Shown: piece by piece, positions 25,101 through 25,640 of the stretch | Layout: each line of letters opens with the position of its first letter | Numbering within the stretch: position 1 is the first letter of the stretch | Origin: an uncultured Chlamydiae bacterium | GTDB lineage: Bacteria; Chlamydiota; Chlamydiia; Chlamydiales; JAJFMA01 | Direction of reading: 5' to 3' | DNA: 64,000 nt | NCBI GenBank assembly: GCA_963713615.1 | Contig: CAVQMM010000001.1 | Coordinates: 3,008,001-3,072,000, forward strand | The notes under the pieces: generated by a model | The model's input: the letters and a program-made list of their open reading frames with translations, nothing else | Databases searched by the model: none | Told to the model about the DNA's origin: nothing | Made by a program: the position numbers and the translations under genes

Positions 25101-25443
25101 AATTCAGCGTCGCATGCCATTTCGAAAATCATCGCCACAGGAAGATTATTTTTTAGGTATTGATGACGAAAACGATGAGAACCCTAAATTTCATTTCATA
25201 GATGACAACGGACCGAAATGTCTCGATGAAAGCTTCAAAAGAACACTCGAATTTAATTTAGGTAGAGGTGTCTCATATTGGCAAGGGTTTTCCTACACCG
25301 AAGAAATTTGCCGCCTTGCTGATCTTTTAGATCTGAAACTCTCAGATGCTTGTCAAAAATTTGGACGCCTAAAGTTGTATCAATCTCAGTCAAATCCTTG
25401 GCAATACCATCCAATGCTAGGCGTCCACAAAAATCCTTCCTAG
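22138..25443 (+). CDS. cas3: Type I-F Cas2-Cas3 fusion (HD nuclease + SF2 helicase)
   Basis: N-terminal Cas2 (ETRRIVDQFAER), FHDFGKAN, NMASTGCGKT, IDEPDD, LLSSAT, EVGRDHDYD, GRIQRHR. Confidence 0.98.
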   Translation: MRILIVSRCSKNALTETRRIVDQFAERCGDCVWQTHITKQGLDMLRQLLKKTARRNTSVACHWLRGYSVDELLWIVGDASRFNDHGQVPTNSTHRDILKSGRENSWNTLADISLLVSIAALFHDFGKANSLFQNKLQPSSKDSKMRCEPYRHEWVSLRLFEAFVGNLTDQQWLKKLSEVSKQDEKALLELVKNGEFKEINPFKMLPPLARVIGWLIISHHRLPYWDGIESDGNSPRLGNIKQWLTHSLEAAWNSPQHKWAKAWEVKHMKAVWCCPKGTPMQSPIWQGKAQKIALRALERPHFIKDWLSDDPFTIHVARMILMLADHHYSAEPPTKKWQESIPKLYANTDRETGKCKQQLAEHVIGVAHYASRFVRQLPTLRSTLPAITRHKAFKRRAQASIFHWQDKAYDLAVSIRERTSLQGFFGVNMASTGCGKTLANARIMYGLACDRRGCRFNIALGLRTLTLQTGDALRERLNLNDEDLAVLIGSGAVKALHDHRDELSSIEEVLDQNALFGSESSEDLFYPSEHVRYEGTLDDGILSKWLRKDNKLHKLVSAPIVVSTIDHLVGATESQRGGKQIAPMLRLLTSDLVIDEPDDFELDDFPALSRLVHWAGMLGSRVLLSSATLPPDLVHALFDAYQTGWKEFRKSCLETGIDLGVCAAWFDETGCRTSECCDSTSFMENHREFVDERIKHLQKQPPLRRGQIVPIASSTNDKSCASSAERLIAKTIHESILKLHHDNAMVHPTSGKRLSFGLVRMANINPLVAVAKTLLQEPSPNGYQIHYLIYHSRHPLVIRSSIERLLDQMLKRHNPTDIWNHPVVAKAMSKYATENHVFVVIASPVAEVGRDHDYDWAIAEPSSMRSIVQIAGRIQRHRQYNENKVNPNLHILDQNYRALRQNDTVFCQPGFESECHKIHPHQISQILVPEQYEKINSTVRIKCDDHSDPASNLAAFEHSRIRAKLLREGQGKEYAALWWNEPAHWSYEIQRRMPFRKSSPQEDYFLGIDDENDENPKFHFIDDNGPKCLDESFKRTLEFNLGRGVSYWQGFSYTEEICRLADLLDLKLSDACQKFGRLKLYQSQSNPWQYHPMLGVHKNPS

Positions 25444-25517
25444 GCTGCCTGTACGGCAGTAAATCAACACTAACAATCGATGAAAATATTTTCTGAGCTG
25501 CCTGTGCGGCAGTGATC
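25437..25517 (-). CRISPR. Antisense mini-array: repeat, 25-nt spacer, degenerate repeat; candidate regulatory crRNA-like RNA
   Basis: Minus strand GATCACTGCCGCACAGGCAGCTCAGAAA (26/28 vs array repeat), ATATTTTCATCGATTGTTAGTGTTG, ATTTACTGCCGTACAGGCAGCCTAGGAA (22/28). Both keep the CTGCC/GGCAG stem. Confidence 0.9.
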
Positions 25518-25613
25518 TATGCTGCGGTCAGCACTGCTAAAACCTACAGCAAATATGGGTGTACCCTAACGCAGGATCCTATTTTCTTCAACAGCTTAAT
25601 GACACCACCCCTC

Positions 25614-25640
25614 CACGACCCACAATTAATGATAATATGG
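25614..25640 (+). promoter_or_regulatory. Putative cas8f promoter (extended -10-like TGaTAATAT) and target of the mini-array spacer, with GG/CC PAM at 25639-25640
   Basis: 18/25 match to the mini-spacer; about 60 bp upstream of the cas8f ATG (RBS AAGGGGG at 25691). Confidence 0.7.

Follow-up and report, generated by a model that had tools for sequence, protein, structure and literature searches.

A putative CreR-type antisense mini-array between cas3 and cas8f in a probably chlamydial type I-F1 locus, predicted to direct repression of its own csy operon

Introduction

Standalone arrays that regulate their own CRISPR-Cas systems have been named creR, and type I-F examples that adjoin effector promoters have been listed (Liu et al., 10.1101/2023.03.10.532045). 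In type I-F1, antisense mini-arrays that act on the Cascade promoter as repressors are found between cas3 and cas8 (Shmakov 2023, 10.1101/2023.03.03.530964); these elements have a degraded distal repeat, and their targets combine a CC PAM with a mismatch at position 6 (10.1101/2023.03.03.530964). The mini-array of P. aeruginosa YL84 represses a Cascade-promoter reporter in a manner that needs Cascade and does not need Cas3, and its guide represses as strongly as a full guide while a target plasmid is not cleared (both 10.1101/2023.03.03.530964). Relief of repression by crRNA load and by anti-CRISPRs has been claimed for the I-B, I-E and V-A CreR (10.1101/2023.03.10.532045). Guides of similar design also serve in type I-F toxin-antitoxin modules, e.g. 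CreTA1/2 of P. aeruginosa, where CreA2 has a 26-nt spacer and yields a 54-nt RNA (10.64898/2026.06.02.729485), and CrePA of A. baylyi, where the CreA target is directly followed by a -35 element (10.1101/2024.01.05.574328).

CRISPR-Cas systems are known in general from environmental chlamydiae. Here we describe a mini-array of this kind in a probably chlamydial genome, compare it with related loci and weigh the readings that could account for it.

Results

The type I-F1 locus and its surroundings

The window, i.e. the whole 64,000-nt stretch of DNA that was analysed, contains a complete I-F1 locus of six cas genes (cas1f, cas2-3 and csy1-4), each of which scores above its NCBIfam cut-off (Table 1). 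The locus lies on the main contig of a 3.97 Mb genome that is assembled in three contigs. We take His29 of Cas6f to be the catalytic position. This residue aligns with the His of a solved Cas6f (9irf_B). The sequence GAAGGGGG at 25690-25697 precedes cas8f. As for the host, the chlamydial protein Hc1 was found above cut-off in the genome, with the same profile positive in one of 14 controls (Bacteroides), and Chlam_OMP6 gave two matches below cut-off as against none in the 14 controls. Among Cas8f homologues with a named organism, the best match (42% identity) belongs to a Chlamydiota bacterium. These signs agree with the chlamydial origin given in the original prediction, short of a formal placement.

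Table 1. Positions of the observed and predicted features of the locus in the window
Feature	Position	Strand	Basis or remark
cas1f	21170..22138	+	TIGR03637 above cut-off
cas2-3 (Cas3f), intact 1101-aa frame	22138..25443	+	TIGR02562 above cut-off
Distal repeat, degenerate; hairpin kept, handle decayed	25464-25437	-	22/28 vs main-array repeat
Putative regulatory spacer, 25 nt (7 nt shorter than the 47 array spacers)	25489-25465	-	
Proximal repeat, intact hairpin, exact 8-nt handle CTCAGAAA	25517-25490	-	26/28 vs main-array repeat
Predicted mature guide RNA, 53 nt (8 + 25 + 20)	25497-25445	-	expected from Cas6f cleavage at the hairpin base
Candidate mini-array promoter TTGAAG-17-TAGGGT, weak	25563..25591	-	permissive motif scan
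GGAGG (25614-25610), 4 nt, 6-codon frame GTG to TGA (25605-25588)	25588..25614	-	chance feature or possibly CreT-like
CC PAM (25640-25639) and partial target	25614..25640	-	18/25 identity
TGATAATAT, extended -10 of the original prediction, alternative promoter	25630..25638	+	1/35 loci
Predicted csy-operon promoter: -35 TTGCGA (25642-25647), 17 nt, -10 TAAGTT (25665-25670)	25642..25670	+	positional conservation
cas8f (csy1), opening the operon predicted to be regulated	25701..26948	+	TIGR02564 above cut-off
cas5f (csy2)	26948-27889	+	TIGR02565 above cut-off
cas7f (csy3)	27916-28935	+	TIGR02566 above cut-off
cas6f (csy4)	28944..29498	+	TIGR02563 above cut-off
Main CRISPR array, 48 identical repeats, 47 spacers all 32 nt	29628..32475	+	

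No spacer of the main array has a self-target longer than 16 nt in the genome. Three pairs of these spacers are alike (31816/32236, 31936/32056 and 31996/32416, with 27, 25 and 23 of 32 positions identical, respectively), which suggests that the same sites were targeted more than once in invader variants.

The surroundings of the locus contain several further frames of note. F-type conjugation genes are found nearby on the minus strand (TrbC-, TraW- and TraC-like, 42777-45934), the TraW- and TraC-like frames being below their full-length cut-offs, and an IS607/TnpB element (40414-42667) is surrounded by further transposase-like frames; a mobile island may thus contain the CRISPR locus. Just upstream of cas1, at 16753-20835, a 465-aa transposase-like frame (17471-18868) is flanked by two frames resembling fragments of a different transposase-like gene. 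On the minus strand (15592-16234), some 5 kb upstream of cas1, a RelE/ParE-like toxin frame (below cut-off) is followed by a small partner frame, and the two probably form a type II toxin-antitoxin pair. On the plus strand at 54420-55427, a 335-aa protein inside a 2.6-kb duplicated stretch has a weak, below-cut-off match to the XopAH/AvrB effector family (E 2.9e-13). Two near-identical 138-aa frames lie 550 bp apart on the minus strand at 34100-35066, and a third DNA copy is found near 11223.

An antisense repeat-spacer-repeat element in the cas3-cas8f gap

The gap between cas3 and cas8f is 257 bp long, and its minus strand holds a repeat, a 25-nt spacer and a second repeat. Their coordinates and the exact handle are as given in the original prediction, as is the overlap of the distal repeat with the cas3 stop (TAG, 25441-25443), which amounts to 7 nt; the two repeats match the main-array repeat at 26/28 and 22/28. 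The hairpin that had been claimed for both repeats is borne out by fold prediction, which gives a 5-bp hairpin in each. Both repeats also match the Rfam family CRISPR-DR4 (RF01317), the proximal with 38.7 bits and the distal with 36.4 bits, above the gathering cut-off of 35. Outside the main array, these two are the only hairpin-bearing repeat copies in the genome; three further matches at 20/28 all lack the hairpin.

In A. baylyi the mature RNA ends within the spacer (10.1101/2024.01.05.574328), and the 3' end of the predicted guide RNA is therefore uncertain here. The candidate promoter of the mini-array lies 74 nt before the repeat, as against 30-32 nt in the three same-phylum relatives described below, and the distance from the PAM to the first repeat is likewise greater (123 nt compared with 68-74 nt). 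The leader showed no significant structured RNA on either strand (z -0.71 and -0.12), and a search of it against Rfam returned a chance match alone (E 0.92).

Among public reads, 12 runs contain 5-12% of the words. Read pieces from four runs map to cas3, cas8f or cas5f or correspond to other CRISPR repeats, with no piece showing the spacer or the target and with no organism-derived coverage of the mini-array, and the single RNA run gave two 151-nt pieces at 26797-27000, which are uninformative on the guide.

A partial target of the spacer before cas8f

The spacer has a partial target on the minus strand 60 bp before cas8f. The predicted match, i.e. CC followed by 18/25 identity at 25640-25614 with mismatches at positions 6, 11, 12, 18, 19, 22 and 23, was confirmed exactly. 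We scored pairing over positions 1-17 without 6 and 12, an omission that favours a pattern of mismatches at 6 and 12; by this score 14 of the 15 pairing positions match. At the CC sites of the cas3-cas8f gap, a score of 14 was reached by 0 of 20,000 shuffled spacers, and the 47 main-array spacers scored at most 9 in the same test. Among the 434,482 CC sites of the genome, the target alone scored above 12. The match between spacer and target is not due to chance, lying far beyond it. Seven CC sites of the genome score 12, the seed being intact in three, and weak binding at other places is therefore possible; because of the mismatch at position 11 there are only 9 contiguous pairing positions at the target.

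One rival reading is an ordinary immune spacer directed against a phage or plasmid, with an incidental likeness to the promoter; no evidence in its favour was found. The original prediction had named a better full-length match of the spacer in such an element as grounds for abandoning regulation. The first 20 bases of the spacer have no exact match in 2.9 million viral contigs, all 16 matches to phage records are at E 0.2 or worse, and the plasmid matches, judged on the 20 listed of 66 matched records, align through the repeats or weakly. The spacer is also 7 nt short, and with the viral, phage and listed plasmid searches we reject immune memory as extremely improbable.

Spacers and targets in related loci

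We searched for relatives of the locus by an alignment-based Cas8f search; a single-sequence Cas8f search of genome contigs had given 210 pattern matches, none of which was confirmed. A sample of 401 genomes from the class and phylum yielded Csy1 in seven, including the genome studied here. Three of the six relatives from the phylum (L002, L003 and L004) have the same antisense mini-array, with different spacers and with Cas8f proteins of 42-44% identity; two others, L006 (gap of 41 nt) and L007 (gap of 7 nt), lack a mini-array, and the sixth (L005) ends before cas3. Each guide of the four phylum loci with mini-arrays matches its own target at 14-15 and the other three targets at 2-11, indicating that spacer and target changed together. 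At the DNA level, comparison with seven genomes of the family gave matches to the repeats alone, besides a chance-level 22-nt match, and no homology in the leader or promoter.

For a broader comparison, the best 80 of at least 568 genome loci and the best 80 of at least 554 metagenome loci with Cas8f matches were added to the phylum loci (hereafter the best-match set). These 167 loci included 143 with both the end of cas3 and the start of cas8f, from which three duplicates were dropped, and 72 gaps of at least 100 nt (window included) were obtained, 37 with a repeat call and 35 without. The loci are top Cas8f matches, hence related and not independent; since the score also omits positions 6 and 12, the counts from this set are descriptive.

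The mini-array layout was found in 35 of the 72 long gaps of the best-match set, window included. In the comparison of cas3-cas8f gaps that the original prediction had proposed, spacer and target co-vary: among the 37 loci of this set with a repeat call, 35 have a CC target scoring at least 11/15 in their own gap, as against 15 of 1332 cross-locus pairs, and 21 have an own-gap target scoring 14-15, as against 0 of 1332. In the same best-match set each of the 35 targets lies on the minus strand, and the arrays are antisense in 34 of the 35 loci. Mismatches are concentrated at positions 6 (26/35), 12 (26/35) and 18 (21/34), other positions up to 17 being mismatched in 0-9 of the 35 loci.

Two members of the set depart from this layout. 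L093 has the sole sense-strand mini-array among the 35 best-match loci, downstream of its own target. In L038 (Stenoxybacter acetivorans) the gap contains a three-repeat antisense array whose 32-nt spacer has no local target and whose second spacer, of 30 nt, matches the promoter site at 15/15; it looks like a mini-array plus one extra spacer.

These comparisons also bear on whether the element could be the decaying remnant of a second CRISPR array, without present function and with a target that is a chance or fossil match. Some I-F loci do have long arrays in the same place, two of the same-phylum relatives lack the element altogether, and the leader of the mini-array shares GAAAATAGG with the main-array leader at a similar distance from the repeat. 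This last likeness is not significant, however, as 447 of 2000 shuffles score as well, and derivation of the mini-array leader from the main leader was rejected on that ground. A remnant would also fit poorly with the preserved handle and hairpins, with a spacer of 25 rather than 32 nt, with a PAM-correct match that is unique in the genome and with the co-variation of spacer and target across loci. We consider this explanation highly improbable.

Placement of the csy promoter relative to the target

When the loci were aligned on their PAMs, TTG was seen directly after the GG. In the window, the predicted -35 of the csy operon begins 1 nt after the PAM, and transcription would start near 25677, giving a predicted 5' leader of about 24 nt. 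Because this promoter has only 7 of 12 consensus letters, it is absent from the list of a plain promoter scan; the scan listed ATGACA-16-CACAAT (25599-25626) and TTGGCA-18-GATTAT (25673-25702, overlapping the start codon), with 1.0 expected by chance. Its prediction comes instead from positional conservation: a -35/-10 pair 0-3 nt after the PAM was found in 22 of 35 loci of the best-match set, as against 12 of 587 other GG sites within the same gaps. Within that set, 18 promoter pairs start at offset 0, and the other offsets between -70 and +40 have at most two each. The promoter filter was permissive and was set after inspection of four loci, and the call for L147, one of the 22, is doubtful.

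The original prediction placed the csy promoter differently, at the extended -10 TGATAATAT (25630-25638) within the target, so that repression would act by covering the -10, and transcription would begin near 25645. Such a model differs from the main explanation in its promoter placement alone. The motif is indeed present, its TAATAT is at least as close to the -10 consensus as TAAGTT, and the scan match CACAAT (25621-25626) likewise falls inside the target. An extended -10 inside the target was found in just one of 35 best-match loci, the window itself, which is near the background of 64 in 2436 windows, and it has no -35 at the right distance. In contrast, the PAM-adjacent pair is kept in 22 of the 35 best-match loci, including L002 and L003, which have similar seeds. 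The motif thus stands as a sequence and does not stand as a conserved -10 of cas8f, and a promoter covered in this way is unlikely. The target probably lies upstream of the -35 and abuts it, instead of overlying the -10. On the minus strand, 8 of 35 best-match loci have a -10-like TAnnnT at positions 1-3 of the target, a raw count without a control that was not used as evidence.

A toxin-like frame in the leader

The leader of the mini-array contains an antisense Shine-Dalgarno (SD) sequence together with a six-codon frame (Table 1), which raises the question of a CreTA module. In such a module the guide would act as antitoxin and, in addition, keep silent a divergent promoter on the minus strand (TTAGAG-17-TATTAT, with its -10 inside the seed) of a small toxic RNA encoded upstream of the mini-array. 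The frame lies in a leader about 50 nt longer than those of the relatives (123 vs 68-74 nt), I-F CreTA modules occupy the same intergenic region, and H. hispanica has one CreA target between divergent creT and cas8 promoters (10.1101/2023.03.10.532045). Within the best-match set the window is the only one of 34 loci with an antisense SD and mini-ORF; the same count, 0 of 33 other loci, shows that the feature is not conserved. Several details also argue against a toxin. The SD-to-GTG spacing is merely 4 nt, the mini-ORF has neither tandem proline nor repeated rare codons, no stable hairpin follows its stop (region z -0.71), the candidate divergent -35 has 2 of 6 consensus letters, and the described Acinetobacter I-F creT genes are divergent from creA.

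On the sense strand, where a toxin could lie between the predicted start and cas8f, no SD with mini-ORF was found in the window, nor in any of the 19 best-match loci whose target is at most 130 nt from cas8f. Such candidates were found in 8 of the 16 best-match loci whose target lies farther off, with L120 as a positive control. A CreTA module at the present locus is improbable. A still more elaborate scheme, in which one guide silences the csy operon together with a divergent promoter (-10 in the seed) of both a CreT-like RNA and the guide itself, would join the SD, six codons and hairpins into a toxic RNA of an intracellular bacterium; we judge it very unlikely. If true, such a module would be without chlamydial precedent as a CRISPR-regulated toxin-antitoxin, and would bring an archaeal-like divergent layout to type I-F.

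Among the related loci, L120 (metagenome contig ERZ1673730, 1230-1300) has a CreA-type target with, downstream of it, an SD, a frame of 15 nt that includes two proline codons, and a GC-rich hairpin; its Cas8f is 39% identical to that of the window, and the frame matches the described proline-codon CreT of P. aeruginosa. In L043, L098, L041, L029, L103 and L066 the target lies 230-620 nt before cas8f, with an SD and short ORFs after the PAM-adjacent promoter, and these ORFs are possible further CreT candidates.

Discussion

We propose that the antisense guide brings Csy to a site beside the predicted -35 of the operon that encodes it, so that this operon is repressed without cutting, and give this reading a probability of roughly 0.85. 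The repeats, spacer, PAM, target and complete I-F1 gene set, and the layout shared with related loci, are present in the sequence itself. The regulatory reading follows from the match beyond chance, the co-varying spacers and targets, the PAM-adjacent -35/-10 pair and the precedent of P. aeruginosa YL84. The weak promoter of the mini-array, placed unlike that of the relatives, weighs against the proposal. As regards the autorepression of Csy first suggested for this locus, the idea has gained from the statistics, from 34 related loci and from a tested precedent in the same subtype and position, but the guide likely acts beside the -35 and not on the -10.

In the proposed mechanism, the mini-array would be transcribed on the minus strand from a promoter between the target and the first repeat, and Cas6f would cut at both hairpins to give an RNA of about 53 nt whose 3' hairpin comes from the distal repeat. 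Csy loaded with this guide is predicted to pair at positions 1-5, 7-10 and 13-17, forming a partial R-loop that covers roughly -37 to -62 of the promoter. The R-loop would have its PAM end on the -35 box and block RNA polymerase, and the short, distally mismatched duplex presumably does not license Cas3. By extrapolation from other CreR subtypes, array crRNAs or anti-CRISPRs that draw Csy away may relieve the repression.

The novelty originally suggested for such an element stands in part. No chlamydial case is named in the literature texts searched, and the large tables of Shmakov 2023 and the bioRxiv supplements may list chlamydial loci; antisense I-F1 mini-arrays between cas3 and cas8 were themselves described and validated in 2023 (10.1101/2023.03.03.530964). 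Single examples of the PAM/-35 geometry are already in print, and the present finding therefore refines a known mechanism and opens no new one. What it adds is, first, an extension of RNA-guided Cas autorepression to an apparently environmental chlamydial lineage, in which four of the seven Csy1-bearing genomes, out of 401 sampled from the phylum, have a mini-array with co-varying spacer and target. Secondly, it offers a usable rule for type I-F, i.e. that the regulatory PAM abuts the -35 (22 of 35 best-match loci), from which csy promoters can be predicted. Thirdly, the room before cas8f helps to tell CreR from CreTA.

Several known systems resemble the locus to different degrees. Like the viral Racr (PMC10651486) and Cracr (10.1101/2024.10.29.618823), the mini-array would supply short repeat-derived RNAs that load on Csy, whereas it is host-encoded inside the cas operon and has its target in cis; a search of the viral contigs for a mimic of its handle plus seed gave 0 exact matches. 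With the I-B CreTA of H. hispanica (10.1101/2023.03.10.532045) it shares the arrangement in which one target could sit between two divergent promoters, but the antisense promoter and mini-ORF are weak and unconserved here, and the system belongs to another subtype and another domain of life. The I-F CreTA modules (CreTA1/2 of P. aeruginosa, Acinetobacter WCHA45, PMC10097628, and CrePA of A. baylyi) have the same guide design and intergenic site, and the predicted 53-nt guide is close to the 54 nt of CreA2 (10.64898/2026.06.02.729485). In those modules a toxin gene lies downstream of the target, in a gap of about 400 bp (WCHA45) or one with a 324-bp ORF (ADP1); here the gap measures 257 bp, only 60 bp separate the target from the start of cas8f, and a sense-strand SD with mini-ORF is absent.

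The closest systems are the mini-arrays of Shmakov 2023 and the CreR elements. The mini-array described here differs from these in its probably chlamydial host, its unrelated spacer, an extra mismatch at position 11 and a leader about 50 nt longer than those of its relatives. It has the same position and antisense orientation, the same combination of a good proximal and a degraded distal repeat, a short spacer, a CC PAM, mismatches at 6 and 12 and a target before cas8. It is most probably a CreR-type regulatory mini-array of type I-F1 and is very likely functional.
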